DNA of 64,000 nucleotides from Squalus acanthias (lineage: Eukaryota): positions 47,618,001 to 47,682,000 of the forward strand of contig CM059432.1 of NCBI GenBank assembly GCA_030390025.1, given 5' to 3'. The translations under genes and the position numbers were made by a program. The notes below the pieces were generated by a model. That model had not been told where the DNA came from, searched no databases, and was given only the letters and a program-made list of their open reading frames with translations. This document shows positions 703 to 62,179 of this stretch, one piece after another (positions within the stretch are counted from its first letter, which is position 1; every line of letters begins with the position of its first letter).

Positions 703-2199
703 CTGGACAGGAAAAAGATCAATTTGGTAAAAAACAGAACAGTGGTTTTAGGTCACAGATGTAATGTTTCAGAATTTACAGATACGCATAGAAGGCTCCC
801 AACATTCCTGTTTAAAAAGAGTATCTGATCACTTCAGTTTGGTGGTGATCTGACTAAAAGTATCCAAAATAATATAGGAATACAGGTTATTGTTCAGAGA
901 CAAACTAATATTGTACAACAATATAAATCACTTTTATTGCACAGGAGAACCACAATTTAAGAAAACTGCACTTCAGTAAACTCAACCCAGCTTTATGTTT
1001 CAGTAGGATAACAGTGCAAATCAGATTAAGATAACTGTGTCCCCTCTAGGCTCCCAAATGAAAAAAGGAAAGATAAACAAGAGTTTCCATACATGCCGAC
1101 CGAGAAAAGTGGCAAAGAGCTTGCCAACAGCTTCAAAAAACTTGAGAGTCTTCAAACAGCTAACATAAGAATGGCTCTGATTATAAGCTTATAACAAGTG
1201 AGAACAAGTAGTTGCATAGGATTTGTAACCTCAGCTATAAGTATACCCAATACTACTTCATTTGTATTGGAGGATATAAAATATTTGTGCAAGAAATCAT
1301 GATGGTAGAAATATAAATGTTGCAGACATAAAATTGGTAGTGGATTTCAATGTGTGGCCGGGGGCGGAGGGGGGAGACAGACACGCCCTTCACAAAAAAT
1401 TTAAATTTTTGCATTAATCACTGTGCATTCTGTTTAATTTTAAGTACTTTTCTACTTCACAATTGATACATTTTTAATCTAAAAAAAGTTAAATTTTGAT
1501 TTCAACAAACCAAGACAGACCTAAAAATTGCCTTAAAATGACCGTAACAATCACTCTTGCACGTTCCCAGGACTTTTACCCCTTTGGACTGAGCTCACAG
1601 AGACACCCAATTACCCACCATTTCACCATCCCACCCAGTTCATACTATCACTCCCATGATTCATCACTCACTCACGTGCAATACACACAATGTATCAGCA
1701 CAGCCAGTGAAACTTTCATCTCAAAGTTCAGGTTCCACTCAGAACGGCAGGTTTATTTGGGGAAATCTACTCAGATGTGCCACCCAGCATCCCGCCACCC
1801 CCCCCCCCCCCCCCCCGCCGCCCCCACTTACCCAGTTCACAATGACAATCTTCCACCCTCCAATTCAAGCTGGTTCTCTTTTCCACTCCAGTTTATGCTG
1901 GCATTCTTTCTCTCTTTCCTCCACCCAGTTCAAATGGGCACTCTCCTTCATCCCACACCCCAAAGCAGCACTCACAGCTTCTCCCCTTATCCCCTCGCAA
2001 AGCACTGCCTCCAGCTTCCCACCTCTTTCTGTTCCATTTCCATCCATTTTCTTCCCTTTTCCTCCCCTCATTCATCGTCATCCATTTTCTCCCTACTTTC
2101 CCATTCACTGCCAACCACTTTTGTGTTAACATCCATCTCCCCCTTCTCTTCCCCTCCATTGCCATCCATTTGCTTCCTTTTCTCACCCCATTTTGCTGC

Positions 2200-12111: not shown

Positions 12112-12144
<33 letters not shown>

Positions 12145-14565: not shown

Positions 14566-16635
14566 CATAAGAACATAAGAAATAGAGCAGGAGTAGGCCA
14601 TATGGCCCCTCCAGCCTGCTCCGTCCTTTAATAAGATCATAGCTAAACTTCTACATCAACTGCACTTTCCCGTCTTATCCCAATATCCCTTGATTTCCTA
14701 TGTGCCCAAAAATCTATTAATTTGTCTTGAATATACTCATCGACTGAGCATCCACAGCCTTCTAGGGTAGAGAATTCCAAAGATTCACAACCCTCTGAGT
14801 AAAGAAATTTCTCCTCATCTCAGACCTAAATGGCCGGCCCCTTATACTGAAACTATGACATCTAGTTCTAAAGTCTCCAGCCAGGGGACAAGCCTCTCAG
14901 CATCTACCCTGTCAAGCCCTCTAAGAATTTTATACATTTCAATGAGTTCACCTTTCATTCTTCTAAACTCCAGAGAACATAGGCCCATTCTACTCACTCT
15001 CTCCTTATAGGACAGCCCTCTCATCCCAGGAATCAATCAAGTGAACCTTCGTTGCACCCACTCTAAGGCAAGTATATCCTTCCTTAGGTAGGGAGACCAA
15101 AACTATACACAGTACTCCAGGTGTGGTCTCACCAAAGCCCTATATAATTACAACAAGACTTCCTTACTCTCATACTCCAAACCCCTTGCAATAAAGGCTA
15201 ACATACCATTTGCCTTCCTAATGCTTGCTGAACCTGCAGGCTAACTTTCTGTGATTCATGTATAAGGACACCCAAATACCTATGAAAAACAACATTTACT
15301 AGTCTCTCACCTTTTAAAAAGTGTTCTGCTTTTCCATTCTTCCTACAAAAGTGGATAATTTCACACTTCCCCACATAATACTTCATCTACCACCTTCTTG
15401 CCCAATCACTTAGCCGATCTATATCCTTTTGCAGCCTCTTTACATCCTCCTCACAGATTACTTTCCCTCCTAGCTTTGTATCTTCAGCAAACTTGGATAT
15501 ATTACACTTGGTCCTCTCATCTAAGTCATTGATATAGATTGTAAATAAACGGAGGCCCAAGCACAGATCCTTGCGGCACTCCACTAGTTGCCATCCTGAA
15601 AATGACCCATTTATTCCTACTCTCTGTTTTCTGTCTGTTAACCAATCCTCAATCCATGCTAATATATTAACCACAATCCCATGAGCCCTAATCTTGTGCA
15701 ACAGCCTCTTACATGGTACTTTATCGAATGCCTTCTGAAAATCCAAATATACTACATCCACTGGCTCCCCCTTAGCTACCCTGCTAGATACACCATCAAA
15801 AAACTTTAATAGATTTGTCAAACAGGATTTCCCTTTCATAAAACCATGTTGACTCTGCCTAATTATATTGTAATTTTTCAAATGCCCTGTTACCACATCC
15901 TTAATAGATTATAGCATTTTTCCTACTGTTGCTATCAGGCTAACTGGCCTATAGTTCCTTGTTTTCTCCCTCCCTCCTTTCTTGAACAGCAGGGTTACAT
16001 TTGCTACCTTCTAATCAACAGGGACCATTCTAAAATCTAGGGAATTTTCGAAGATCAAAACCAATGCATCCACTATCCCTGCAGCCATCTCTTTTAAAAC
16101 CATAGGATGTAAGCCATCAGATCCAGGAATTGTCAGTTTTTAGTCCCATTAATTTCCCCAGTACTTTTCTTTACTAATATTAATTACTTTAAGTTTCTCA
16201 CTATCATTAGACCCTGGTTCCCCACAATTTCCAGTATGTTCTTTGTGTCTTCTACTGTGAAGACAGATACAAAATATTTGTTTAACAACTCTGCCATTCC
16301 CTTATTCCTCATTATAATTCCCTCCATCTCTGCCTCTAAGGGACCCACGTTTACTTTCGCTAATCTCTTCCTTTGTACATACTTGGAAAAGCTCTTACAA
16401 TCTGTTTTTAAATTTCCTGCTTGTTTACCCTCTTTATCAATTTCTTGGTCATCCTTTGCTGATTTTTAAAACCCTCCCAATCCTCAGGCTTACTACTATT
16501 CTTCGTAACATTGTAAATTTCTTCTTTTAATCGAATATTATCCTTAACTTCTCTAGTTAGCCATGGTTGTACCACATTTCCAGTGGAGTTATTATTTCTC
16601 AAGGGAATGTATGTTCATTGAGAATTTTAGAATAT
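14566..16635 (-). mobile_element. 5'-truncated, decayed CR1 LINE
   Basis: QHGFMKGKSCLTNLL, YLDFQKAFDKVP and degenerate FAED RT motifs split by frameshifts; CR1 3' tail at 14566. Confidence 0.9.
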
Positions 16636-16696
16636 TTCTTTAACAGGTGGTGCAAGTCCTTGTGCAAGTCACTCTGACGTGGAAAAAGACTGAATA

Positions 16697-18500
16697 ATGG
16701 CACAACATGGGAGAGAGCGTACTCCAAGGTTTTTGGATGCTGCACTGGAGGCCTTGGTGGAGGAGGGGGAAAGGAGGAGAGAAGTACTGTATCCACAGGG
16801 GGCCCTCCAGACAAATGCTCAGAAGGCAATGGGACCAGATAGCCGTGGCGGTCAATGCCAGGAGTCACGCCCCGAAGACCTAGATGCAGTGCCGCAAAAA
16901 GTTCAATGACCTCACACAAGTGGTCAAGGTCAGTGAATTCATCTTCAAATGCCATATCCTAACAACTGCACCACTAGACAGAGCCTCTGCTCAATGCTCC
17001 ACACCCCTATCACTCACCGACCAACAATCCCCATCAATCAGGATTCATGACCTCCAATTCATAGCTTCACCTCACCCTCACACACTTAGCACTGCTGCAA
17101 GCCTCACACCCACATCTCACAGCTTGCACACACCATGACAGCCACATCACCCAAACAGATTGCACCACACTCACTGACACTTCCCTCTCTCTTGCAGGAC
17201 AAGGTGGAGTACAACTGGAGGCAGCAGGAGCTAACTGGCGGGGTAGGCATGCCTGCATGTCCTTACCCCCATGGAGGAGAGGGTGCTCACCATCATTGGA
17301 GAGGCCATTGCTGAGGCTGAAACCATAGGATATGATGGTATCCTCAAACCTAATCCTCCTCCTTATATTCCACTTCCCGCTTATCCCACAATCTCTTCTG
17401 ATTTAACAAGCTGCAGATGGTGTAAGCATGCACCTCTTTCCCTGCGCACCCCCCGCCGCACCACTCTCCTCACCACAACCTTACCCTTGTGCCTTTCTCC
17501 TTCCAGATACCCAAGAACTGCAAACTGGCCAGGCAGTGGTGGAAGAGCAACAAGACACTGATGATGAAGAAACACCATCACTCGATTTCACACTCACAGC
17601 CATCAGCTGAAATACTGACACTGCACGTAATTTAGAAGCTAGCAAAGAGGTGGGATTTGCACGTGGTGAGACACCAGGCACGAGTGGCCTGCAGCCAGGG
17701 CAGGGGGCAAGGGTTGAGCAGGTGCCAGCTTGTCGGAGATCGACTCACGAGTTCTGCTGCAGAGGACTCAGATGAGCACTTTGATGGGGCAGCCTACAGA
17801 GGAAGACTGATGGGCATGCACAATGAAATGCTTGGCGCATTGGGAAGCCTGCCAGAAAGCTTGCGTGCAATGCCAAGGAGCATGGGGGAGCCCGGCACCA
17901 ACTTGGCACAGGGTTTTGTGCAGAGCTTGGAGACCATTCTTTCCAGCATGGAAGTGGTGGTCAACTCCATTAGCACACTTGTGGACCCAAGCATGATGCA
18001 GCGTCTGATGGCCGATGTCTCAGCTTCCACTGCAGCACAAGCAGCAGCCACCCAACGTCTGCGTGCTTCAGTGGAAACTCACACTGCAGTCATGCAAGGT
18101 CAGACTGCTGCCATAATAGCTGCAGATACCAGTATTGAAAGAGGCCTGCAGGGTGTCACAGCAGTCCAGCAATCTGTCCTCCAACAGATTATTTGGATGG
18201 CTGAGGCGCCGCCCCAGAGGAGTGGCCGTGGCTCCATGGAACACGAACCTGCTGTCCTCTCTTAGATGACAGCATTTGTGCTCCCACCCCTGCCACGCTG
18301 CCAGTTCCCTTGCTGTTGCCTGTCAGCCAGCCAGCCCAGACCGCTGCCGCCTATGCCTAGATGGTGCAGTCCGAAGCCGGGCCAAGAGCTGATCGAGGTC
18401 GTCCTCCAAGGCCATCTGCAGTCTCCTCCACTGAAAGTCAGCAGCCTTCCACCAGCTATGCTGCAGCCACTGGGGTAGCACTTCATAGGACACTAAGACA
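16697..18500 (+). pseudogene. Harbinger Myb/SANT-like DNA-binding protein gene, 3 exons (16697-16928, 17198-17337, 17507-~18500), disrupted
   Basis: MAQHGRERTPRFLDAALEALVEE...QCRKKFNDL (Myb/SANT-like trihelix); GT-AG introns (aag|gtcagt, cttgcag|, ttccag|); exon 2 DKVEYN..QQELTGG; frameshifts and stops. Confidence 0.75.
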
Positions 18501-21247: not shown

Positions 21248-21490
21248 GTCTGGGAGCAACTGGTTTGGGTAGAAGCCTTGAAGTCAACAAAAAGTACTTC
21301 AGCACTTGCCACACCACTCCCTGTAGACTTTTGAAATTTGAAACAACTATGGAAAGCACCAAAAATATGTGGAATTGTAGCAACAGCCAGAAGAAACAAC
21401 TTGCAACTAACCTGTAAGTAGTCGATGATTCCTTTAAATAGCACTGGTGGTGCTGCTTAACGCGTGTTCAGCTGTGCGAGCTTCAGAGAG

Positions 21491-24400
21491 AACATAAGAA
21501 ATAGGCGCAGGAGTAGGCTATTTGGCCCTTCGAGCCTGCTCCGCCATTCAATAAAATCATGGTTGACCTTTTATCTCATCTCCACTTTCCTGCACTATCC
21601 CCATATCCCTTGATTCACTTAATATTCAAAAATCTATCGATCTCTGTCTTGAATATACTCAATGACTGAGCCTCCACAGCCCTCTGGGGTAGAGAATTCC
21701 AAAGATTCACCACCCTCTGAGTGAAGAAATTTCTCCTCATCTCAGTCCTAAATGGCCGACCCCTTATTCTGAGACTGTGACCCCTGGTTCTTGACTCCCC
21801 AGCCAGGGGAAACATCCTCCCTGCATCTACCCTGTCCAGCCCTGTAAGAATTTTGTATGTTACATGATCATCTCTCATTCTTCTAAACTCTCGAGAATAT
21901 AGGCCTAGTCTACTCAATCTCTCCTCATAGGACAATCCCCCCATCCCAGGAACCAGTCTGGTGAATTTTCGTTGCACTCCCTCTATGGCAAGTATACCCT
22001 TCCTTAGGTAAGGAGACCAAAACTGTACACAATACTCCAGGTCTGGTCTCACCAGGGCCCTATATAATTGCAGTAAGACGTCTTTACTCTTATACTCAAA
22101 TCCTCTTGTACTAAAGGCCAACATACCATTTGCTTTCCTAATTGCTTGCTGTACCTGCATGTTAACTTTCAGTGATTCGTGTACAAGGACACCCAGGTCC
22201 CTCTGAACACCAACATTTCCCAATCGCTCACCATTTAAAAAATACTCTGCTTTTCTAATTTTCCTCCCAAAGTGCATAACTTCACATTTCTCCACATTAT
22301 ATTCCATTTGCCATGTTCTTGCCCATTCTCTTAGCCTGACTATATCCCCTTCAAGCCTCTTTGCATCCTCCTCACAACTTACATTCCCACCTAGCTTTAT
22401 ATCATCAGCAAACTTGGATATATTTACATTTGGTCCCCTCATCCAAATCATTGATATAGATTGTAAATAGCTGAGGCCCAAGCACTGATCCTTGTGGTAC
22501 CCCACTAGTTACAGCCTGCCAACCCGAAAATGACCCGTTTATTCCTACTCTGTTTTCTGTCCGTTAACCAATCCTCAATCCATGCTCGTATATTGCCCCC
22601 AATCCCATGAGCCCTAATTTTGTTTAATAACCTCTTGTGTGGCACCTTATCGAATGCCTTCTGAAAATCCAAATACATCACATCCACTGGTTCCCCTCAT
22701 CTGTTCTGCTAGTTACAACCTCAAAAAACTCCAACAAATTCGTCAAACATGATTTCTCTTTCATAAATCCATGCTGACTCTGCCCAATCCTATTATTTTT
22801 TTTCTAAGTATCCTGTTACCACATCCTTAATAATAGATTCTAGCATTTTCCCTACTACTGATGTCAGGCTAACTGGTCTGTAGCTCCCCGTTTTCTCTCT
22901 CCCTCCTTTCTTAAATAGTGGGGTTACATTTGCTACCTTCCAATCCACGGGAACCATTCTAGAATCTATGGAATTTTGGAAAATGACAACCAATGCATCC
23001 ACTATCTCTAGAGCCATCTCTTTCAAAACCCTAGGATGTAGACCATCAGGTCCAGGAGATTTATCGGTTTTCAGTCCCATTCATTTCTCCAGTACTATTT
23101 TTTTTTACTAATACTAATTTCTTTCAGTTCCTCATTCTCGCTGGACCCTTGGTTCTCCACTATTTCCGGGAAGTTTTTGCATCTTCTTCCGTGAAGACAG
23201 ACACAAAGTATGTTTAATTTCCCTGCCATTTCCTTATTCCCCATTATAATTTCTCCTTTCTCAGCCCGTAAGGGACCCACATTTACTTTTGTTAATCTTT
23301 TCCTTTTTACATACCTATAGAAGCTTTTACAGTCTGTTTTTATGACTCACGCTAGTTTACGCTCATATTCTATTTGCCCTTTATCAATTTCTTGGTCCTC
23401 CTTTGCTGAATTCTAAAATCCTCCCAATCCTCAGGCTTACTACTCTTTTTGGCAACATTATAAGCCTCTTCCTTTAATCTAATACTATCTTTAACTTCTC
23501 GTTAGCCACGGTTGGACCACTTTTCCTGTGGGGTTTTTGTGCCTTAAAGGAATGTACATTTGTTGTAAATTATGTATTAATTCTTTAAATACTAGCCATT
23601 GCTTCTCTACCATCATACCTTTCAATGTAGTTTCCCAATGTACCTTAGCCAACCCGCCCCTCCATACCTACGTAGTTTGCTTTGTTTAGATTTAAGACCC
23701 TAGTTTCGGATTTAACTAAATCACTTTCAAACTCAATATAAAATTCTGAAGGCCCTTTTACTACAAGGTTATTAATTAACCCCTTCTCATTGCACAATAC
23801 TAGATCTAAAATAGCCTGTTCCCTAGTTAGTTCCTCAACATACTGATCTAGAAAACTATCTTGCATACATTCCATGAATTCGTCCTCCACACTATTACTG
23901 CAAATTTGGTTTGCCCAGTCTATATGTAGATTAAAGTCGCCCATGATTACTGTATTACCCTCGTTACATGCTCCTCTAATTTCCTGATTGATACTCTGCC
24001 CTACATTACAACAACTGTTTGGGGGCCTATCAACAACTCCCAACAATGTTTTCTGCCCCTTGCTGTTGCTCAGCTCCACCCAAACTGATTCTACTTCTTG
24101 ATTTTTTGGAGCGAAGATCCTTTCTCTCTCCTGTCTTTATCCCATCTTTTATCAGGGCTACCCCTCCTCCTTTTCCATTTTGCCTATCTCTTCTAAAAGT
24201 TGAGTATCCTGGAATATTTAGTTCCCAACCTTGGCCACTTTGCAACCACGTCTCCGTTATGGCTATTAGATCACCTGTTAATTTCTATCTGCGCTATTAA
24301 TTCATCTATTTTGTTGCAAATGCTTCACACAGACATAGTGCCTTTAGCTTTGACTTACTTCTACTTTTCCCTGATGTCACCTTAGTCACTGATGCCTTAG

Positions 24401-24536
24401 TACCTTTGTTACTCTCTCTGTCCCTTCCTGACCCACTCTGCTTATTTTTACCCAAAACTCTACTCTGCTCTAGAGCCTTGACATTTCTCTCGCTGCTTTT
24501 AAATTTACTCTTTCCTGAATCCTCCAACCCCCCCTT
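21491..24536 (-). mobile_element. CR1 LINE (ORF2 complete in extent but frameshifted) inserted in Harbinger copy 1
   Basis: APE endonuclease (MGDFNL, AILDLVL), KSPGPDG, FQKAFDKVPH, FADD motifs; 3' tail at 21491. Confidence 0.92.
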
Positions 24537-36362: not shown

Positions 36363-36770
36363 GGCACTGAATTTGTGGGGAAATGCCTCCGATCCGCAAA
36401 TAAAATGCCCGTGTACCTGGTGGTCCGGAGACTCTGACCTCTCCGGGTACCCGCGGGCAGAGGCCCACGTATCCCAGAGGCGCAGGTCATCCCATGTGGG
36501 TCAGCCCAACCAATAAAAGAAGGGAATCCCCATTCATGCTTATGGGGATTTCGTACGTACGGAAACCCCATAAGCATGAATGGAAATACCTCCAAAAATA
36601 CATCTACACTTCAAATAAATAAAAAATTAATTAAAATGCCATTTAATTAAATATTTAAAACAAAAATGTATTTTTCTGAAAAATAAATTTAAATGTTTTA
36701 AAGGGGCTAAAAATAAACTTACCTTATTGTACAGGTTTTTTTAATGTATAAATGATTGATAAAAATTTAT
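36363..36770. mobile_element. truncated hairpin-bearing MITE related in layout to 4932-5700
   Basis: GC-rich end followed by AT-rich core; 18-bp perfect hairpin 36530-36583; cut by the adjacent CR1. Confidence 0.5.
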
Positions 36771-38325
36771 TGGAGAAATTAATGGGACTGAAAGCCGATA
36801 AATCCCCTGGACCTGATGGCCTACATCCTAGGGTTTTAAAATAGAGATAGTGGATGCATTGGTTGTCAACTTCCAAAATTCCATAGATTCTAGAACGGTT
36901 CCCGCAGAGTGGAAGGTAGCAAATGTAACCCCACTATTTAAGAAAGGAGAGAGAGAGAACTACAGACCAGTTAGCCTGACATCAGTAGTAGGGAAAATGC
37001 TAGAATCTATTATTAAGGGCGTGGTAACAGGGCACTTAGAAAATAATAAGATTGGGCAGCGTCAACACAGATTTATGAAAGGGAAATCATGTATGACGAA
37101 TCTGTTAAGAGTTTTTTGAGGTTGTAACTAGCAGAATAGATAAGGGGGAACCAGTGGATGTGGTGTATTTGGATTTTCAAAAGACATTCGATAAGGTGCC
37201 ACACAAGAGGTTATTAAATAAAATTAGGGCTCATGGGATTGGGGGTAATATACAAGCATGGATTGAGGATTGGTTAACAGACAGAAAACAGAGAGTAGGA
37301 ATAAACGGGTCATTTTCAGGTTGGTAGGCTGTAACTAGTGGGGTACCACAAGGATCAGTGCTTGGGCCTCAGCTATTCACAATCTATATCAATGATTTGG
37401 ATGAGGGGACCAAATGTAATATATCCAAGTTTGCTGATGATACAAGCTAGGTGGGAATGTAAGTTGTGAGGAGGATGCAAAGAGGCTTCAGGGGATATAG
37501 TCAGGCTAAGTGAGTGGGCAAGAACATGGCAAATGGAATATAATGTGGAGAAATGTGAAGTTATCCATTTTGGTAGGAAAAATAGAAAAGCAGAGTATTT
37601 TTTAAATGGAGAGAGATTGGGAAATGTTGGTGTTCAGAGGGACCTGGGTGTCCTTGTACACGAATCACTGAAAGTTAACATGTAGGTACAGCAAGCAATT
37701 AGGAAAGCAAATGGTATGTTGGCCTTTATTACAAGAGGATTTGAGTATAAGACGTCTTACTGCAATTATATAGGGCCCTGGTGAGACCACACTTGGAGTA
37801 TTGTGTACAGATTTGGTCTCCTTAACTAAGAGGAAGTGCAATGAAGGGTCACCAGACTGATTCCTAGGATGGGGGGATTGTCCTATGAGGAGAGATTGAG
37901 TAGACTAGGCCTATATTCTCTAGAGTTTAGAAGAATGAGAGGTGATCTCATTGAAACATACAAAATTCTTACAGGGCTTGACAGGGTAGATGCAAGGAAG
38001 ATGTTTCCCCTGGCTGGGGAGTCTAGAACCAGGGGGTCACAGTCTCAGAATTAGGCCATTTAGGACTGAGATGAGGAGAAATTTCCTCACTTAAATGGTG
38101 GTGAATCTTTGGAATTCTCTACCCCATAGGGCTGTGGAGGCTCAGTCGTTGAGTATAAAAACAAGACAGAGATCGATAGATTTTTGGATATCAAGGGAAT
38201 CAAGGGATATGGGGATAGTGCAGGAAAGTGGAGTTGAGGTAGAAGATCAGCCATGATCTTATTGAATGGCGGAGCGGCGAGGGGCCGAATGGCCTACTCC
38301 TGCTCCTATTTTTTATATTCTTATG
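36770..38325 (+). mobile_element. 5'-truncated CR1 LINE, closely similar to 21491-24536
   Basis: KSPGPDG, ANVTPLFKKG, FADD-region DNA, CR1 3'UTR. Confidence 0.9.
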
Positions 38326-38334
38326 TTGCCTTGT

Positions 38335-48098: not shown

Positions 48099-48612
48099 GT
48101 AAAGGTGGCACATAACAGGCACCAGCAGACCTTAACCAACGGGGGACTGGTTCACCTGCAGCACCTCACTCCCTTGGAGGAGACGGGACTGGCCATTCTT
48201 AACAGGAGCATGGCTGAGCCTGTGGCCAGCGGTGGGGTTGAAAGAATAGAAGATGCCGCTTTTCCTCATGTTATCCTCCTTCTCACATCCCACTTCCCCC
48301 CATCCCACAATCTCTTCTGATTTACAATCTGCACATGGTGTAAGCATGCACCTCTTGCTTCACCCCACTTTCCCTCACCACAACGTTACCCTTTTGCCTT
48401 TCTCATTTCAGACACATAAGAAATCCAGCCTACCCAGCCAGTGAGTCAACATGAAGAGGGAGAGGAGCGTGAAGAAGAAACACCGTCCCTCGATTTCACA
48501 CTCCCAGCCACCAGCTCAGATACTGGCACGCCGCAAACTTTAGAGGATAGGTTGGACGTAGGATCTGCACTGGGCGGGACACTCGTCACGAGTGGCCTGT
48601 AGCCAGGGAAGG

Positions 48613-48650
<38 letters not shown>

Positions 48651-50480
48651 AGCTCAGGTGCCAGCTCACCAGAGGGAGAGGTCCCACACGAGTTCTGCTG
48701 CACAGCACTCAGATGAAGACTTCGCTGGGGGGGTATACAGAAGAATACTGATGGGTATGCACAATGAAATGAGTGCATTGGCAGGCTTACCAGAGAGCCT
48801 GAATGCAATGTCAAGGAGCATGGAGGAGTCCAGCTCCAGCCTTGCACAGGGCTTTGGGCAGAGCTTGGAGCCCATTCTTTCCAGCGAGGCGGGGTGGGCA
48901 GATCCATTAACGCACTTGTAGACCCAACCATCATGCCGCTTCTGATGGCCGAGGTCTCAGCTTCCACTGCAGCACAAGCAGAAGCCACCCAATGTCCGAG
49001 TGTTGCAATGGAAGCTCAGACTGAAGTCATGCAAGTTCAGCTTGCTGCCACGCAAGCACAGACTGCTGCCATCATGGCTGGGTTTACCACTGTTGAAAGG
49101 GGCTTGCAGGGTGTCACAGCAGTTCATAAGAACATATAAGAACATAAGAAGTAGGAGCAGGAGTAGGCCATACGACCCTTCGGGCCTGCTCCGCCATTCA
49201 ATAGGATCATGGCTGATCCGAACCTAGACTCACGTCCACTTCCCTGCCCGCTCTCCATAACCCTTAATTCCCTTATCAGCTAGGAAACTGTCCATCTCCG
49301 TTTTAAATTTATTTAATGTCGCAGCTTCCACAGCTCTCTCAGGTAGCAAATTCCATAGATTTACTACCCTCTGAGTGAAGAACTTTCTCCTCATCTCAGT
49401 TTTGAAACGGCAGCCCCTTATTCTAAGATTATGCCCCCTAGTTCTAGTCTCACCCATCAGTGGAAACATCCTCCCCGCATCCACCTTATCAAGCCCTCTC
49501 ACAATCTTATATGTTTCGATAAGATCGCCTCTCATTCTTCTGTATTCCAATGAGTAGAGGCCCAACCTACTCAACCTTTCCTCATAAGTCAACCCCCTCA
49601 TCTCCGGAATCAACCGAGTGAACCTTCTCTGAACTGCCTCTAGAGCAAGTATATCTTTTCTTAAATATGGAAACCAAAACTGTACGCAGTATTCCAGGTG
49701 TGGCCTCACCAGTACCCTATATAGCTGAAGCAAGCCTTCCCTGCTTTTATACTCCATCCCCCTTGCAATAAAAGCCAAGATTCCATTGGCCTTCCTGATC
49801 ACCTGCTGTACCTGCATACTAACCTTCTGTGTTTCATGCACCAAGACCCCCAGATCCCTTTGTACTGTAGCACTTTGCAGTTTCTTTCCATTTAGATAAT
49901 AACTTGCTCTTTGATTTTTTCTGCCAAAGTGCATAACCTCACACTTTCCAACATTATATTCCATCTGCCAAATTTCTGCCCACTCACTTAGCCTATGTCC
50001 TTTTGCAGGTTTTTTATGTCCTCCTCACTCACTGCTTTCCCTCCCATCTTTGTATCGTCTGCAAACTTGGATACGTTGCACTTGGTCCCCTCCTCCAAAT
50101 CGTTACTATAGATTGTAAAGAGTTGGAGTCCCAGCACTGACCCCTGCGGAACACCACTAGTCCAGCAGTCTGTACTCCAGCAGATTACTAGGATTGCTGA
50201 GGCGCTGCCCCGGGTGAGTGGCAATGGATCCGTGGAGGCCGATCCTGCTTTCCTTTCTCAGAATGACAGCATTCGTCCACCCACCACTGCCACTCCACCA
50301 GTGCCCTTGTTGTTGCCAGTCAGCCAGCCCAGACTGCTGCCACCTATGCCAAGGTGGTGCAGTCCAAAGCCGGGCCTACTAGGCCCTGAGCTCCTCGTGG
50401 TCGCCTGCAAGGCCATCTGCAGTCTTCCCCACTGAAAGTCAATAGCCTTCCACCAGCCATGTTGCAGCCACTGGGTAGCA
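48099..50480 (+). pseudogene. Harbinger Myb/SANT-like gene exons 2-3 (exon 1 lost), split by CR1
   Basis: ccttgcag|VKVAHNR..; tttcag| exon 3 with ETPSLDFTL and LMGMHNEM..LPESL matching copy 1. Confidence 0.7.
49125..50160 (-). mobile_element. young CR1 3' fragment in Harbinger copy 2
   Basis: [14 protein letters not shown] and an open 244-codon C-terminal frame; Harbinger sequence gtcacagcagt|ccagcag rejoins across it. Confidence 0.92.
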
Positions 50481-51372
50481 CTAGGATAGGTAAAGGCACA
50501 CGCAAGACAGTCACTTAGGGAATGCACAAGGGTATTTAGTTGATTTTTAGATTAAATATTGGATGGATAGATGTATAAAGTTGGATTAGAATGTTTGTTT
50601 TGTGGTGGCTTTTATTTCAGCATTGTGGCCAAAAGGACACTGTGATGGTCAATAACAGAGGGAAGGTAAGGTGTGGAAAGATTGTTGAATGGGGAATTCG
50701 ACCCCAGACATCCCAGCCAGAAAGGGGCTGCCTAGGTTGCTTCCTTCCTTCCACTTCCGCCTCCTCCTCCGCTGGTGGCAAGGGCTGTGCTCTCATGATG
50801 GCCAGGTTGTGGAGGATACAGCAGACCACGAATCAGGAAACACGCTCTGTGAGTACTGCAGGGGCTCCTCCAGAGCGGTCCAGGCAGCGGAACCGTCGCT
50901 TCAGCACCCCAATTATGTACATGGCAGCATGGCTCTCGTTGTACGCATGCTGGCCACGTGTGGTTGGGTTGTGGAGCAGAGTTATGAGCCAGGTGGTTAA
51001 GGGATAGCCCTTGTTGCCCAGTAGCCACCCTCTGGTCTATCTTGGTGGCTCAAAGACTGAGGGAACAGAGAACTGGTGTAGAATAAAAGCATCATGACTG
51101 CTGCAAGGATACTGGGCACTCGCCATCATGATGTGCTGAGCATGATCACACACCAACTGCACATTCAGCGATTGGAAACCTTTGTGGTTGTGGTAAATCT
51201 CAGCCTTTAGATACGGTGCCCACAAAGCCACATGCGTGCAGTCGATGGCACCCTGCACCATGGGGAAGTCTGCTATTAAACATAGAAACATAGAAGATAG
51301 GAGCAGGAGTAGGCCATTCAGCCCCTCGAGCCTGCTCCGCCATTCAATGAGATCATGGCTGATCATCCAAAT

Positions 51373-54171
51373 TCAGTACCCTGTCCCTGCCTTCTCTCCA
51401 TATCCCTTGATCCCTTTAGTTTTAAGAAATATATCTAACTCCTTCTTGAATATATTTAATGAATTGGCCTCTACTGCCTTCTGTGGTAGAGAATTCCACA
51501 GGTTCACCACTCTCTGGGTGAAGAAATTCCTCCTCATCTCAGTCCTAAATGGCTTACCCCTTATCCTTAGACTGTGACCCCTGGTTCTGGACTCCCCGGC
51601 CATCGGGAACATCCTTCCCGCATCTAGTCTGTCTAGTCCTGTTAGAATTTTATAAGTTTCAATGAGATCCCCTCTCATTCTTCTAAACTCCAGTGAGTAT
51701 AAGCCCAATCGACCCAATCTCTCCTCATACGCCATTCCTGCCATCCCGCGTATCAGCCTGGTGAATCTTCGCTGCACTCCCTCCATGGCAAGAACATCCT
51801 TCCTCAGATAAGGTGACCAAAACTGCACACAATACTCAAGGTGTGGTCTCACCAAGGCCCTGTACAACTGCAGCAAGACATCCTTGTCCCTGTACTCGAA
51901 CCCTTTCGCTACGAAGGCCAACATACCATTTGCCTTCTTAACCGCCTGCTGCACCTGCATGCTTACCTTCAGCGATTGGTGCACAAGGACACCCAGGTCT
52001 CGTTGCACTTCCCCTTCTCCCAATCTATTGCCATTCAGATAATAATCTGCCTTCCTGTTTTTGACACCAAAGTGGATAACCTCGCATTTATCCACATTAT
52101 ATTGCATCTGCCATGCTTCTGCCCAATCCCCCAACCTGTCCAAATCATACTGGAGTTTCTCGGCATCCTCCTCCCGGCACACACTCCCACCCAGCTTTGT
52201 GTCGTCTGCAAACTTGGAGATATTACATCCAATTCCATCATCCAGATCATTAATATATATTGTGAATAGCTGGGGTCCTAGGACCGATCCCTGCGGTACC
52301 CCACTAGTCACCGCCTGCCACTCGGAAAAAGACCCATTTATTCCAACTCTTTGCTTTCTGTCTGCCAACCAGTTCTCTATCCAAGTCAATACCTTGCCCC
52401 CAATCCCATGTGCCTTAACTTTACACGCTAATCTCTTATGCGGGACCTTATCGAAAGCCTTCTGAAAGTCCAAATACACCACATCCACTGGTTCTCCCTT
52501 ATCCATTTTACCAGTTACATCCTCAAAAAATTCCAGTAGATTAGTCAAGCACGATTTGCCTTTTGTAAATCCATGTTGACTTTGTCCGATCCTGTCACTG
52601 TTTTCCAAGTGCTCTGCTATTACATCTTTTATAATGGACTCTAGCATTTTCCCCACTACCGATGTCAGGCTTACTGGTCTATAATTCCCCGTTTTCTCTC
52701 TACCACCTTTTTTGAATAGTGCGGTAACATTAGCTACCCTCCAATCCATGGGTACTGTTCCAGATTCCATTGAATGTTGGAAGATGATCAGCAATGCATC
52801 TACTATTTCTAGGGCCACTTCCTTAAGTACCCTAGGATGTAGATTATCAGGCCCTGGGGATTTATCGGCCTTCAATCCCGTCAATTTCCCTAACACTATT
52901 TCCCTACAAATACTGATTTCTTTCAGTTCCTCCTTCTCATTCGACCCTATGTTCCCCGACATCTCTGGGAGGTTATTTGTGTCCTCCTTTGTGAAGACAG
53001 AACCAAAGTATGTATTTAATTGGTCTGCCATTTCTTTGTTCCCCATTATAAATTCCCCTGATTCTGACTGCAAGGGACCTACGCTTGACTTCACCAATCT
53101 TTTTCTCTTCACATATCTATAAAAGCTTTTACAGTCAGTTTTTATGTTCCTCGCAAGCTTACTCTCATACTCTATTTTCCCCCTCTTAATTAATCCCTTT
53201 GTCCTTCTTTGTTGAATCCTATACTGCTCCCAATCCTCAGGTTTTCTGCTTTTTCTGGCCAATTTATATGTCCTTTCCTTGGATCTTATGCTATCCCTAA
53301 TTTCCTTTGTTAGCCACGGTTGAGTCACCTTTTTTGTTTTATTTTTATGCCAAACTGGGATGAACAAATTCTGTAGTTCATTCATGCGATCTTTGAATGC
53401 TTGCCATTGCCTCTCCACCGTCAACCCTTTGAGTGAGATTCCCCAATCAATCCTACCCAACTCGCGCCTCATACCATCGTAGTTTCCTTTATTTAAATTC
53501 AGGACCCTAGTCTCTGAGTCAACTACTTCACTCTCCATCTTAATGAAGAATTCGATCATATTATGATTGCTCCGACCCAAGGGGCCTCGTACAACAAGAT
53601 TGCTAATTAATCCTTTCTCATTACATAATACCCAGTCTAAGATGGCCTGATCTCTAGTTGGTTCCTCGACATATTGGTCCAGGAAACCATCCCGTATACA
53701 CTCCAGGAATTCCTCCTCCACAGTATTGTTACTAATTTGGTTAGCCCAATCTATATGTAGATTAAAGTCGCCCATGATAACTGCTGTGCTCTTATTGCAC
53801 GCTTCTCTAATTTCCCTTTTAATGCCATCCCCAACCTCCGTATTACTGTTTGGGGGTCTATACACCACTCCCACTAGTGTTTTCAGCCCCTTGGTATTTC
53901 TCAGTTCTACCCATACAGATTCCACATCATCAGAGCTAATATCCTTCCTTACAATTGTGTTAATCCCCTCTTTAACCAGCAATGCTACCCCACCTCCTTT
54001 TCCTTTTTGCCTATCTTTCCTGAATATTGAATACCCCTGTATGTTGAGTTCCCAGCCTTGGTCACCCTGGAGCCATGTTTCCGTAATCCCAATCATATCA
54101 TATTCGTTTACCTCTATTTGCGCAGCTAATTCATCCACCTTATTACGAATGCTCCTCGCATTAAGGCACAA
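51373..54171 (-). CDS. CR1 ORF2: APE endonuclease + reverse transcriptase, uninterrupted 932 codons (true start upstream or non-AUG)
   Basis: NARSIRNK, GITETW, MGDFN, LDWVL, SNHNMI (normally SDH), [24 protein letters not shown] motifs with no stop or frameshift. Confidence 0.9.
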   Translation of the reverse strand: MCLNARSIRNKVDELAAQIEVNEYDMIGITETWLQGDQGWELNIQGYSIFRKDRQKGKGGGVALLVKEGINTIVRKDISSDDVESVWVELRNTKGLKTLVGVVYRPPNSNTEVGDGIKREIREACNKSTAVIMGDFNLHIDWANQISNNTVEEEFLECIRDGFLDQYVEEPTRDQAILDWVLCNEKGLISNLVVRGPLGRSNHNMIEFFIKMESEVVDSETRVLNLNKGNYDGMRRELGRIDWGISLKGLTVERQWQAFKDRMNELQNLFIPVWHKNKTKKVTQPWLTKEIRDSIRSKERTYKLARKSRKPEDWEQYRIQQRRTKGLIKRGKIEYESKLARNIKTDCKSFYRYVKRKRLVKSSVGPLQSESGEFIMGNKEMADQLNTYFGSVFTKEDTNNLPEMSGNIGSNEKEELKEISICREIVLGKLTGLKADKSPGPDNLHPRVLKEVALEIVDALLIIFQHSMESGTVPMDWRVANVTALFKKGGREKTGNYRPVSLTSVVGKMLESIIKDVIAEHLENSDRIGQSQHGFTKGKSCLTNLLEFFEDVTGKMDKGEPVDVVYLDFQKAFDKVPHKRLACKVKAHGIGGKVLTWIENWLADRKQRVGINGSFSEWQAVTSGVPQGSVLGPQLFTIYINDLDDGIGCNISKFADDTKLGGSVCREEDAEKLQYDLDRLGDWAEAWQMQYNVDKCEVIHFGVKNRKADYYLNGNRLGEGEVQRDLGVLVHQSLKVSMQVQQAVKKANGMLAFVAKGFEYRDKDVLLQLYRALVRPHLEYCVQFWSPYLRKDVLAMEGVQRRFTRLIRGMAGMAYEERLGRLGLYSLEFRRMRGDLIETYKILTGLDRLDAGRMFPMAGESRTRGHSLRIRGKPFRTEMRRNFFTQRVVNLWNSLPQKAVEANSLNIFKKELDIFLKTKGIKGYGEKAGTGY

Positions 54172-54367
54172 AGCCTTCAGGCTTGTTTTTTTTAACGCTC
54201 TTAGACCTTTTAGAATTTTTTTTTTTTTTTTTTTACTGTGGCCACGTTTGATTTAAACCCTTGATTTCTCTGACTGACACCTTTGTTTTTTTCCTTCCTG
54301 ACTTTTGCTTCTATTCTTGTTTCCCTTTCCTCTGTCTCCCTGCTCAGGTTCCCAACCCCCTGCCATT

Positions 54368-56130
54368 TTAGTTTAAACCCTCCCCCAGAGCACTAGCAAA
54401 CACTCCCCCAAGGACATCGGTCCCGGTCCTGCTCAGGTGCAAACCGTCCGATTTGTACTGGTCCCACCTCCCCCAGAACCGGTTCCAATGTCCCAGGAAT
54501 TTGAATCCCTCCCCCTTGCACCATTCTTCTAGCCACGTATTCATCTGAAATATCCTTCTATTTCTACTCTGACTAGCACGTGGCACTGGTAGCAATCCTG
54601 AGATTACTACCTTTGAGGTCCTATTTTTTAATTTATCTCCTAACTCCCTATATTAGGATGAAGAGCTGGGCCGAAAAATGGCAGATGGAATTTAACCCTG
54701 ATAAGTGCGAGGTGATTCATTTTGGTAGGGCAAATTTGAATAAGGATTACAGGGTCAACGGCAGGGTTCTGAGGAACGTGGAGGAACAGAGGGATCTGGG
54801 GGTTCATATCCACAGATCTCTGAAGGTTGCCACTCAAGTGGATAGAGCAGTAAAGAAGGCCTATAGTGTGTTCGCGTTTATTAACAAGGGGTTTGAGTTT
54901 AAGAAACGTGAGGTTATGCTGCAACTGTACAGGACCTTGGTGAGACCACATTTGGAATATTGTGTGCAGTTCTGGTCACCTCACTATAGGAAGGACGTGG
55001 AAGCATTGGAAAGAGTGCAAAGGAGATTTACCAGGATGCTGCCTGGTTTGGGGGGGAGGTCTTATGAGGAAAGATTGAGGGAGCTAGGGCTTTTCTCTTT
55101 AGAGCGGAGAAGGATGAGAGGCGACTTAATAGAGGTTTATAAGATGATGAGGGGGATAGATAGAGTGGATGTTCAGAGACTATTTCCTTGGGTGGATGTA
55201 GCTGTTACAAGGGGGCATAACTATAAGGTGCATGGGGGGAGATATAGAAGGGATGTCCAAGGTAGATTCTTTACTCAGAGAGTGGTTGGGGTGTGGAATG
55301 GACTGCCTGCTGTGATAGTGGAGTCGGACACTTTAGGAACTTTCAAGCGGTTATTGGATAAGCACATGGAGCACACCAGAATGATAGGGAGTGGGATAGC
55401 TTGATCTTGGTTTCGGACAATGCTCAGCACAACATCGAGGGCCGAAGGGCCTGTACTGTGCTGTACTGTTCTATATGCAGCTTTTAGGACCTCATCCCGT
55501 TTTTTACCTATATCGTTGGTACCTATATGCACCACGACAACTAGCTGTTCACCCTCCCCTTCCAAAATGTTTTGCAGCCGCTCCGAGACATCCTTGACCC
55601 TTGCACCAGGGAGGCAACACACCATCCTGGAGTCTCATTTGCTGCCGCAGAAACGCCTATCTATTCCCCTTACAATAGAATCCCCTATCACTATAGCTGT
55701 ACCCCTCTTTTTCCTCCCGTCCTGTGCAGCAGAACCACCCCTGGTGCCAGGAAGTTGGCTGCTGCTGCCTTCCCCTGATAAGCCATCCCCCTCAACAGTA
55801 TCCAAAGCGGTATATCTGTTTGAGAGGGGGATGTCCACAGGGAACTCCTGCACTACCTGCCTGTGCCTACTACTCTGCCTGGTGGTCACCCATTCTCTTT
55901 CTGCCTGTGCAGCCTTTACCTGCGGTGTGACCAACTGGTTAAACGTGCTATCCACGAGGTCCTCAGCATCGCGAATGCTCCAGTATGCATCCATTCGCAG
56001 CAATGCGGTCTGCCAGTAGCTGCAGCTGGATACACTTCCCGCACACATGGTCGTCAGGGACACATGAAGTGTCCCCGATTTCCCACATAGCGCAGGAGGA
56101 GCATAGCACAGCGCCGAGCTGTGCTGCCAT
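54368..56130 (-). pseudogene. CR1 ORF1 (CxxC..CxxC zinc finger + SGNH esterase-like domain), disrupted
   Basis: ATG at 56130: MAAQLGAVLCSSCAMWE..VCGKCIQLQLL; LSNRY; VIGDSIVRG, CLPGARV, HIGTND, DGLHL; one frameshift and a nested CR1. Confidence 0.85.
54654..55470 (+). mobile_element. CR1 3' fragment of another subfamily inserted antisense into ORF1
   Basis: Open frame WAEKWQMEFNPDKCEV..RFFTQRVV; tail ctgtgctgtactgtt; duplication ctatat at 54648-54653 and 55471-55476. Confidence 0.9.
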
Positions 56131-58711: not shown

Positions 58712-61420
58712 CTCTACAGGAAAGATAGGGAAAATGGCAGAGGGGGAGGAGTAGCCTTAGTGATTAAGGATAAAATCACTTCAATGATAAGAGAGGATAT
58801 AAAGAGAGGTAAGCAGGCAGTGGAGACTTTTATGGGTAGAATTAAGAAATAGGAAAGGATTTAAGACTGTAGTGGGAGTTGTGTATAGGCCTCCTGGTAG
58901 CAGCTGTGAAGTGATAGATTGTATAAATGCAGAGATTAGACAAGCATGTAGCAAAGGCAGAGTGATTTTAATGGGGGATTTTAACTTTAATATAGATTTG
59001 GATAAGCAGTCTAGCACCGGTTAGAAAGGTAGTGAATTTCTTTAGAGTGTCCGGGATAGTTTTCTACAACAATGTCCTAGAGGCGACAAGGGGGCAAGCC
59101 ATATTAGATTTAGTAATGAGTAATGAGCCAAATTTAGTTAACAGCCTAACTCTGCGTGAACATTTATCCAATAGCGATCATAACATGATCGAGTTCAACG
59201 TAGCGTTTGAAAGGGAGAAATGCAAAACAGCTGCTAAGATTCTAGATTTAGGTAAGGCCGACTTCAACAGGATGAGGCAAAGACAGTCCACAGTAAACTG
59301 GGCAAATCTGTTAATGGGTAAAACGACAGGAGATCAGTGGGAGATTTTTTTTTAAAGAATTTAATGTGATACAGACCAGTTTATACCCGAGGGGCAAGAA
59401 CGCTACTTGCCAAAAAAAAAGCCATGGACGACTAAAGAGGTAAGGGACAGCATAAAAACTAAAAGAAAAAGCATACAGAAATGCAAAAAATAGCACAGAT
59501 CCTGGCGAATGGGAAAGATACAAAGAACAGCAAAAGATCACAAAACAGATAGTAAGAGCTACAAAAAGGGAGTATGAAAAGAAACGTGCAAGGGATATCG
59601 AAATTAATACAAAGAATTTTTACAATTACATTAGGAAAAAGAGGTTTGCCAGGAGCAATGTTAGCCCCTTAAAAACTGAAAGCGGTGATATTGTCAATGG
59701 TAAGAAGGAAATGGCGGACATGTTGAATAATTACTGTGTGTCAGTATTTACAGTAGAGTAAGAGGATAGCATGCCGGAAATCCCGAGGAAACTAATATTG
59801 AATTGGGGACAGGGACTCAATAAAATTAACGTAATAAAATTAACGTAAGTAAAATAAAAATAATGAAGAAAATAATGGCACTAGAGTGTGACAATCCCCA
59901 GATGGTTTCCATCCCAGGGTTTTAAAGGAAGTCGGTGAGCACATTGCAGATGCCCTAACTATAATCTTCCAAAGTTCTCTAGATTCAGTAACCATTCCTT
60001 TAGATTGGAAAATTGCACATGTCACTCCGCTATTTAAGAATAGCAAGAGGGGAAAACCAGGGAATTATAGACCAGTTAATCTAACATCTGTTGTCGGGAA
60101 ATTACTAGAGTCTATAATTAAGGATAGGGTGACTGAACACCTCAAAAATTCTCAGATGATCAGAGAGCGCCAGCCTGGTTTTGTGAAAGGTAGATCATGC
60201 CTGACAAACCTGATGAATTTTTTGAAGAGGTGACTAAAGTAGTGGACAGGGGAATGTCTATGGATGTTATTTATATGGACTTCCAAAAGGCATTTGATAA
60301 AGTCCTACATAAGAGACTGTTATCTAAGGTAGAAGCCCATGGAATTGAGGGCAAATTATTGACCTGGTTAGGAAATTGGCTGAGCGACAGGAGACAGAGA
60401 GTAGGGATAATGGGTAGGTACTCAGATTGGCAGGATGTGACTAGTGGTGTCCCGCAGGGATCTGTGTTGGGGCCTCAACTATTCACAGTATTTATTAACT
60501 TAGATGATGGCATAGAAAGCCATATACCCAAATTTGTCGACGACACAAAGATAGGCAATAGTGTAGATGAAAGCTTAAAATTACAAAGAGATATTGATAG
60601 ATTAAGTGAATGGGCAAAACTGTGGCAAATGGATTTCAATGTAAGCAAATGTGAGGTCATCTACTTTGGACCTAAAAAGGATAGAACAGGGTACTTTCTA
60701 AATGGCGAAAAGCTAAAATCAGTGGATGTCCAAAGAGACTTGGGCGGGTGTCTAGGTATACAGATCATTAAAATGTCATGAACAGATACAGAAAATAATC
60801 AAAAAGGCTAATGGAATGCTGGCCTTTATATCTAGAGGACTAGAAGTTATGCTGCAGCTATACAAAACCCTGGTTAGACCACACCTGGAGTATTGTGAGC
60901 AGTTCTGGGCACCACACCTTAGAAAAGATATATTGGCCTTGGAGTGAGCGCAGCATAGGTTTACCAGAATGTTACCCGGACTTCAAGGGTTAAGTTATGA
61001 GGAGAGATTACACAAATTAGGGTTGTATTCCCTAAATTTAGAAGGTTAAGGGGTGATCTGATCGAAGTTTTCAAGATATTAAGGGGAACAGATAGGGTAG
61101 ATAACAGCACTGTGGGAGTACCTTCACCACATGGACTGCAGCGGTTCAAGAAGGTGGCTCACCACCACCTTCTCAAGGGCAATTAGGGATGGGCAATAAA
61201 TGCTGGCCTTGCCAGCGACACCCAAATCCCATGAAAAAATAAAAAAATTGAGCCTAGATCAATTGTTAATTTTAAATCTGAGATTGATAGCTTTTTGTTA
61301 ACCAAAGGTATTAAGGGAAGTGAGCCAAAAGCGGGTATATGGAGTTAGATCGCAGATCAGCCATGATCTCATTGAATGGCGGAACAGACTAGAGGGGCTG
61401 AATGGCCTACTCCTGTTCCT
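58712..61420 (+). mobile_element. decayed CR1 (EN to 3'UTR)
   Basis: [36 protein letters not shown], with many frameshifts. Confidence 0.9.
61105..61247 (+). mobile_element. short 3' fragment of the LINE with LF-SINE-like tail, inside the CR1
   Basis: cggttcaagaaggtggctcaccaccaccttctcaagggcaattagggatgggcaataaatgctggccttgccagcgacaccc..A-rich end. Confidence 0.75.
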
Positions 61421-62179
61421 ATCAAAGTCACAAATGGCATTCTTTGTGACTGTGACCATGATAAAGTATCCCTCCTCATCCTTCTTGACCCATCTGCAGC
61501 CTTCAACACAGGTGACCACACCATCCTCCTACAACGCCTCTCCTTCGTCGTCCAGCTGGGTGAAACCGCCTTTGCTTGGTTCCATTCTTATCTATCTAAT
61601 CGTAGCCAGAGAATCACCTGCAATGGCTTCTCTTCTCACTCCTGCACTATTACCTCTGGGCCTTGACCCCTTTCTACTTCTCAACTATATGCTACCCCTC
61701 GGTGGCATCATCCGAAAACACAACATCAGGTTCTACATGTACGCTAATGACAGTCAGCTCTAGCCACCTTCACTGTCTCTGATTTGTCACACTGCTTGTT
61801 CGACATCCAATATTGGATGAACAGAAATTTCCTACAACTAAATATTGGGAAGACTGAGCTACTTGTGGAGTAAAGGAAGAAAGCAGAAAGGAAGAACTTG
61901 TATTTTTATAGCACCATATTACATCCTTGGGAAGTCTCAAAACACTTCTCATGCAACAAATGAAGTGCACTCACTGTTGCATAGGCAAATGTGGCAGCCA
62001 GTTGGACACAGCAAGATCTCACAAACACATATGAGACGAATAACCAATTAATATTTTTGGGTAGTGTTGGTTGAGGGAGGAATATTGGCTAGGATATCTG
62101 GAGAACTGCCTGCTCTTTGAATAATATTGTGGAATTTTTATGCCCAGCTGCACAGGCAGATAGAGATGTCGCAGAAAGG

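Follow-up and report, generated by a model that had tools for sequence, protein, structure and literature searches.

Three slippery heptamers, U_UUA_AAC, G_GGA_AAC and A_AAA_AAC, serve -1 ribosomal frameshifting at the ORF1a-1b and gag-pol sites of viruses, where a structural protein is fused to a polymerase at a low ratio; the same three heptamers are at issue in the CR1 retrotransposons considered here. Viral -1 sites use a 3' pseudoknot or stem-loop. CR1 elements are very common in sharks, reptiles and birds. Among LINEs they dominate in all three groups, and according to the available part of PMC11835228 they account for 11.8% of the chicken genome. Frameshifting has been described in other non-LTR elements: the accessible text of PMC5911963 states a -1 frameshift for ORF2 of the Dictyostelium elements TRE5-A and TRE3-A, which resemble CR1 in being APE-type LINEs and differ in clade, host and an ORF1 without esterase; and some Penelope-like elements have ORF1 split from the reverse transcriptase by a frameshift with a pseudoknot (PMC8557442, in the part available). 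Penelope-like elements are likewise non-LTR, and some also bear an SGNH esterase (accessible sections of PMC3905857), but their reverse transcriptase class is another one, their nuclease is of the GIY-YIG type and they have the pseudoknot. Frameshifting in non-LTR elements is therefore not new as a category. SART1, by UAAUG coupling, and mammalian L1, by reinitiation, likewise have to express ORF2 at a low level from a bicistronic RNA (PMC3894237, PMC5009743, as far as their text was available), but they start a free ORF2p at an AUG, whereas the CR1 studied here lacks a usable AUG and its product would be a fusion. The available text of PMC3894237 calls the translation of LINE ORF2 an open question and lists stop-start, reinitiation, IRES and 2A for it, not frameshifting. 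No description of -1 frameshifting in CR1 was found in the full-text literature, as far as the texts were accessible (for example PMC2881922, PMC4255032, PMC5408684 and PMC2734521; the original CR1 papers and the Repbase reports were outside the scope). The word 'frameshift' is absent from the accessible text of PMC4120745 and of the esterase structure paper PMC3905857, and 'CR1' is absent from the first 300,000 of the 449,034 characters of PMC5009743. The chance that the original CR1 or Repbase sources hold a passing remark on CR1 frameshifting is considerable, though somewhat below even.

The element analysed is a minus-strand CR1 LINE of the cartilaginous-fish type in a 64,000-nucleotide stretch of Squalus acanthias DNA (contig CM059432.1, positions 47,618,001 to 47,682,000; hereafter the window, to whose numbering all coordinates refer). 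It runs from the ORF1 start at 56130 to 3' octamers ending at 51280, and the named proteins nearest to it are from ray, sawshark and turtle. ORF1 (54368-56130, minus strand), delimited by domain search and homologues, comprises a zinc finger (C-x2-C-x16-C-x2-C, as read from the translation), a coiled coil and an SGNH esterase, and its C-terminus is G-L-N-stop. Its C-terminal part matched Lipase_GDSL_2 in the domain search (E 1.7e-5), and the esterase matched PDB 4c1b, which we take to be the zebrafish ZfL2-1 esterase, with an E value of 8e-39. The closest named ORF1 relatives are sawshark and ray proteins (59-84% identity); a structure model of one ORF1 relative (P0001) predicted a helix at 31-71. 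ORF2 (51373-54252, minus strand; 959 codons stop to stop) is intact, and encodes an APE endonuclease (Exo_endo_phos, E 1.4e-10) followed by a reverse transcriptase (RVT_1, E 8e-33). The 3' UTR (51280-51372, minus strand) closes with two TTCTATGT octamers (51295-51280). This octamer microsatellite at the 3' end, without poly(A), is a feature of CR1 membership; the available text of PMC8665684 names such an end for amniote CR1s. At the level of sequence, the architecture matches CR1 subgroup 7 with ORF1 type IVB in the accessible text of Metcalfe and Casane 2014 (PMC4120745), being alike in the order of the ORF1 domains, the APE and reverse transcriptase of ORF2 and the octamer tail; that account handles ORF1 and ORF2 as separate ORFs, without fusion. 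The only candidate for a target-site duplication around the full element was a 7-mer overlapping the 3' octamers, its 5' end not being fixed. ORF1 is dead in the window copy: its frame breaks near 56000, a TGA interrupts it at 55637-55635, and 55470-54654 is taken up by an inserted 817-nt antisense 3' fragment of another CR1 (54654-55470, plus strand; tblastn match to ORF2 residues 706-952, 56% identity), bounded by a 6-nt ATATAG duplication (55476-55471 and 54653-54648). Consequently, any junction activity belonged to the parent element.

ORF1 ends GGT TTA AAC TAA, with the heptamer U_UUA_AAC (54371-54377, minus strand) in the ORF1 frame and directly adjoining the UAA stop (54368-54370, minus strand), which falls within CUA-AAA in the -1 frame. 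The original prediction had claimed this phasing and this contact with the stop, and both were verified at 54377-54371. Counting both strands, TTTAAAC occurs 16 times in the window and directly precedes only one of its 6366 stop triplets, the one at this site; any X_XXY_YYZ heptamer directly precedes 36 of the 6366. Reading on from the heptamer in the -1 frame, 54 codons pass before a stop just past the A19 run, in keeping with the more than 50 codons first claimed. The linker (54180-54377, minus strand) is basic and Met-free in the -1 frame, and is put out of phase here by an A19 (54234-54216) and an A8 (54193-54186). ORF2 of the window copy sits in the +1 frame, one of its codons starting 208 nt past the stop, and therefore this copy is itself unable to show the mechanism; with its ORF1 broken and its linker out of phase, it is no longer able to frameshift into ORF2. 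The statement that ORF2 has no usable AUG ahead of its first endonuclease motif also stood: an L1-type in-frame AUG upstream of the endonuclease is absent, the first one (54096) lying downstream of the N-A-R-S motif (54162-54151). Two near-cognate codons, CUG at 54180 and UUG at 54171, are in frame directly ahead of that motif. The final A of UAAA and the UGG after it make an AUG (54364-54366, minus strand), which is in the ORF2 frame only in the out-of-phase window copy and is closed by a UAA at 54255-54253, as had been noted originally. Long G homopolymers are present elsewhere in the window, at 12114-12143 (30 nt) and 48611-48649 (39 nt); taken with the A19, they point to homopolymers in this assembly that are unstable or whose lengths were misread by long-read sequencing.

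The phase of the junction in relatives of this family was read from contigs of four sequencing runs aligned to window positions 53950-54650 (9851 matching records in run X1, 31488 in run X8), using 24 listed of about 41,700 aligned pieces, four of which span both A runs. Three of these four listed spanning records (X1 record 3, X8 record 18 and X8 record 19, two of the three coming from one run) lack 11 nt each across the linker relative to the window, which places ORF2 in the -1 frame; by these records the family phase is the predicted one. It had been proposed that one extra A would join the -1 frame to ORF2: the arithmetic was right, but the relatives restore the phase by being 11 nt shorter. 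An AUG-initiated open ORF2, the arrangement at odds with the prediction, was not seen among the relatives compared. X8 record 18 extends to within one base of the ORF1 stop; its substitutions at 54202 and 54204 could create a stop in one reading of the linker, depending on gap placement. The fourth, X15 record 12 (identity about 85%, linker dissimilar), lacks 12 nt, which leaves ORF2 at +1; it is either evidence against the -1 phase, or a decayed single copy, or a member of another subfamily. Few members of the family seem to have the A19: depth over it in X1 fell from about 10^6 to 22, at a repeat where the alignment tool also cuts reads. The loose-end consensuses past 54192 (21 records in X1, 30 in X8) show A7 instead of A8 at 54193-54186 and, where the window has the A19 homopolymer, a stretch of A and T with interruptions, and read by eye in the ORF2 frame they give N-S-K-R-S-K-S-V-K-K-T-S-L. 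A one-base deletion at 54186 accounts for 20-26% of the depth in X1, X8 and X15, and the family difference of 11 nt is probably 10 + 1: a shorter, interrupted A-rich stretch plus A7 for A8. There were no substitutions between 54345 and 54385 among the 40 listed of 161 variant rows. In the raw-read run X21, 15 reads aligned, none over the heptamer or the A19. A second abundant subfamily, with loose ends at 54347, shares the heptamer region and the next 24 nt and then has a different linker, the first 30 nt of which, read by eye, are open in the -1 frame and also in the +1 frame.

An X_XXA_AAC heptamer directly before the stop compels ORF1p to end in L-N, G-N, K-N or P-N, the codon of the preceding residue ending in X. 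All ten close ORF1 homologues end in L-N. From 158 esterase matches, 57 without the D-x-x-H motif and four with tails of more than 45 residues were dropped, leaving 97 scorable sequences: 68 of these have a C-terminal N, preceded by L (52), G (11), K (2), S (2) or E (1). The ends L-N, G-N and K-N, found in 65 of the 97, are those encoded by U_UUA_AAC, G_GGA_AAC and A_AAA_AAC, and 64 of the 65 have, third from the end, a residue that fits the XXX triplet. Q precedes G-N in 9/11 cases and L-N in 0/52; residues with NNY codons only (F/Y/H/D/C/N) precede L-N in 23/52 and G-N in 0/11 (binomial p 0.0009 for the residue preceding L-N, on rows that are not phylogenetically independent). The tail from the catalytic His motif to the C-terminus varies from 24 to 39 residues, indicating that the signal tracks the stop and not the esterase fold. 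When the tails were thinned to less than 50% alike, 23 of the 33 that are not L2-like ended in [LGK]-N. Ten more tails have an internal [LGKP]-N site, which in six is K-N at one fixed position, 10-12 codons before the stop; 22 of the 97 have no [LGKP]-N site. P0231, P0237, P0244, P0256, P0263 and P0276 form a clade with a presumed internal A_AAA_AAC 10-12 codons ahead of the ORF1 stop, which would be a true overlap as in retroviruses. Two esterases within an L-N clade (P0180, P0210) end in S-N, judging by their residues perhaps from a relaxed heptamer such as U_UCA_AAC. An esterase tree (95 rows, terminal residues excluded, two rows dropped as too short) has L-N ends in both main halves, with G-N and K-N nested in one half, and a seven-row clade (support 100/100), called L2-like because one of its tails nearly equals that of PDB 4c1b, has no such ends. 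Turtles are among the named L-N enders. From this two-frame amino-acid signature we infer that the heptamer probably occurs beyond the shark family; conservation across CR1 families, raised by the original prediction, is thus seen at the protein level, the L-N, G-N and K-N ends being kept far beyond that family.

In ORF2 proteins, a site of this kind read in the -1 frame would appear as F-K-L, G-K-L, K-K-L or P-K-L. Among 120 ORF2 matches, 25 were left out because their first motif could not be recognised and another 24 because they lacked an upstream window; in the 71 scored, [FGP]-K-L occurs in frame 20-110 residues upstream of the endonuclease motif in 11, against 2.3 expected from ORF2 bodies, several of these cases being near relatives and one or two perhaps chance. 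The residue after the -1 motif has a purine-initial codon in all 13 listed cases (P0029 and P0167 included), as must be so if the ORF1 frame has a UAR stop there. A further 27 ORF2s begin at the V or L just past the motif, probably gene-caller starts at GUG or UUG, to judge from the residues. Natural ORF1-ORF2 fusions were also found. P0029 (1054 residues) joins esterase, Y-L-K-L-V-G-Q-G-G, linker, endonuclease and reverse transcriptase, and belongs to a family with Y-L-N at the end of ORF1. In P0013, a gene model from a ray that may hide an intron or a correction, R-G-G-F-K-L-D-V-Q-G runs into the endonuclease; P0031 and P0092 are further examples. These look like copies in which the -1 product has been fixed by a single inserted base. 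Searching proteins with the peptide that the linker encodes in the -1 frame gave no scoring match. P0013 (XP_059824367.1) is named hydroxyacid oxidase 2 isoform X1, probably a mis-annotation: its first 500 residues are CR1 esterase, linker and endonuclease.

The site differs from the viral ones in that no 3' structure was found in the window copy and the 0-frame stop directly adjoins the heptamer. A stimulatory stem or pseudoknot 5-9 nt downstream was not found in this one decayed copy, in which no Watson-Crick stem of at least five pairs starts near the heptamer. After a 6-nt spacer comes a G-rich segment (GGCAGGGGGTTGGG; 54336-54364, minus strand), reading W-Q-G-x-G in the -1 frame, a candidate stimulator. 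Its presence had been stated correctly, but it forms a weak hairpin only and folds no better than shuffles (z of -0.63, -1.11, +1.29 and +0.52 for four folds). Its G4Hunter score of 1.44 is below the ORF2 maximum of 1.48 (2.5% of ORF2 windows reach 1.2), and Rfam gave chance matches only at the junction. A G-rich codon pair recurs about 10 nt downstream in relatives (W-Q-G, V-G-Q-G-G, V-S-Q-G-G), which suggests a sequence element; in the available text of PMC5009743, natural stimulation by G-quadruplexes was not known but anticipated in 2016. The search of viral contigs gave no close CR1 relatives; genome contigs gave one spurious match of 19 residues only; among metagenome contigs there were two loci with a distant esterase, L001 and L002, and both lack X_XXA_AAC at the stop of ORF1. 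The esterase ORF of L002, read by eye, has an in-frame U_UUU_UUA (891-897, plus strand) four codons before its stop, after which the -1 frame closes within about nine codons; this is possibly another or a decayed shift site.

The phase of the relatives, the lack of an AUG and the protein footprint support the gag-pol-like fusion that the original prediction had proposed, and we put the probability that the junction is a programmed -1 frameshift producing an ORF1p-ORF2p fusion at about 0.8, on sequence evidence. Most ribosomes would terminate at the UAA and free ORF1p, and a minority would slip by -1 on U_UUA_AAC, the tRNA-Leu and tRNA-Asn re-pairing on UUU AAA. The slipped ribosomes would read the basic linker of about 60 codons, giving a zinc finger/coiled coil/esterase-linker-endonuclease-reverse transcriptase fusion; the ratio of ORF2p to ORF1p would be low and the enzyme would be tethered to the ORF1p particle, as with Gag-Pol. 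More speculatively, the pause might come from the next-position stop codon, from the G-rich tract or from both, and not from a pseudoknot.

The best surviving alternative, to which we give a low probability, is that ribosomes terminate at the UAA and then reinitiate as in L1, or start at a near-cognate codon, making a free ORF2p, the heptamer slowing termination or being incidental. The in-frame CUG 54180 and UUG 54171 just ahead of the first endonuclease strand would suit such a start, initiation of ORF2 after termination is discussed for L1 and SART1 (in the accessible text of PMC5009743 and PMC3894237) and no frameshift stimulator was found, but this leaves unexplained why it is precisely the -1 frame in which the linker stays open as far back as the heptamer, and why L-N, G-N and K-N replace one another with a matching upstream residue. 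It is very improbable that the terminal L-N is kept for the sake of the esterase protein and ORF2 is expressed from a spliced or sub-genomic RNA or by internal entry. A constant distance is seen in many proteins, 36 of the 52 L-N enders having L-N at distance 26 from the catalytic motif, but in the remaining enders the distance ranges over 24-39, G-N and K-N substitute for L-N, the L2-like outgroup is without L-N, and K-N is retained as an internal site where the stop has shifted downstream. The P0001 model has the last helix ending at residue 311 and predicts the final four residues outside it, at lower confidence (mean pLDDT of 63 for the last block, against 95-98 for the core), which speaks against this alternative too. 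For the spliced RNA, no recurring splice joint was seen among those listed in one RNA-like run, weak evidence from contigs only.

Polymerase slippage on the A19, restoring the frame in a share of transcripts, is barely credible: the run is located at the frame break of the window copy, but it is copy-specific, relatives having the interrupted A/T stretch and the depth collapsing over it, and since the ORF1 stop is 134 nt upstream, slippage there alone cannot carry the ribosome into ORF2. The A19 was consequently rejected as a programmed slippage site. A SART1-type stop-start on UAA-A-AUG (AUG 54366) can be practically dismissed, since, although this AUG is in the ORF2 frame of the window copy and X15 record 12 keeps the +1 phase, it is closed by the UAA and out of the ORF2 frame in the three 11-nt-shorter records, UAAAAUG is not the overlapping UAAUG of SART1 (available part of PMC3894237), and the matching place reads D-V in P0013 and V-G or V-S in other families.

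A wider version of the frameshifting model is only tentative, and we consider it rather less probable than not: -1 frameshifting may be the ancestral, clade-wide route to ORF2p in esterase-bearing CR1s of sharks, turtles, birds and distant lineages, with the site switching between U_UUA_AAC, G_GGA_AAC and A_AAA_AAC, the abutting stop and a G-rich tract or bound protein taking the place of a classical pseudoknot, a Gag-Pol-like esterase-endonuclease-reverse transcriptase fusion as the product, free 'ORF2p' nonexistent and the whole undescribed. If frameshifting is true, the CR1 enzyme would be an ORF1p-ORF2p fusion, and present ORF2 annotations would begin too late, cutting the endonuclease; tests for 'intact' CR1s should check the heptamer and the phase of the linker, retrotransposition constructs would need the junction, and the host's antiviral inhibitors of frameshifting could act on the CR1 junction. 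The candidate sites would also be a large natural collection of eukaryotic frameshift signals in which the stop is the very next codon and structure is not evident.

A second CR1 copy in the window (21487-24533, minus strand), found by alignment, is 5'-truncated, decayed and 75% identical, has neither heptamer nor ORF1, and is bounded by a 6-nt CTGAAG duplication (24539-24534 and 21486-21481). This copy had been cited for its open, Met-free linker at 24.3-24.5 kb; the linker is there, but the copy is truncated right at the target duplication and was rejected as evidence on the junction, on which it has no bearing. Its 'AC-TGA' was likewise rejected as a remnant of the stop, as it belongs to the CTGAAG duplication. 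CR1 copies with truncated 5' ends crowd the window, in at least 12 places (for example 14566-16643, 36761-38327, 49131-50162 and 59462-61423); they belong to several subfamilies and are 65-90% alike, and only the copy at 51-56 kb extends to ORF1. The main CR1 and the second copy both end against remnants of Harbinger-like DDE_Tnp_4 transposases (51279-50700 and 21092-20499, minus strand), and near 49130 another CR1 end likewise adjoins a repeat, one that is also present at 17001-18168; an insertion preference for that DNA transposon, or a nested cluster, is possible.
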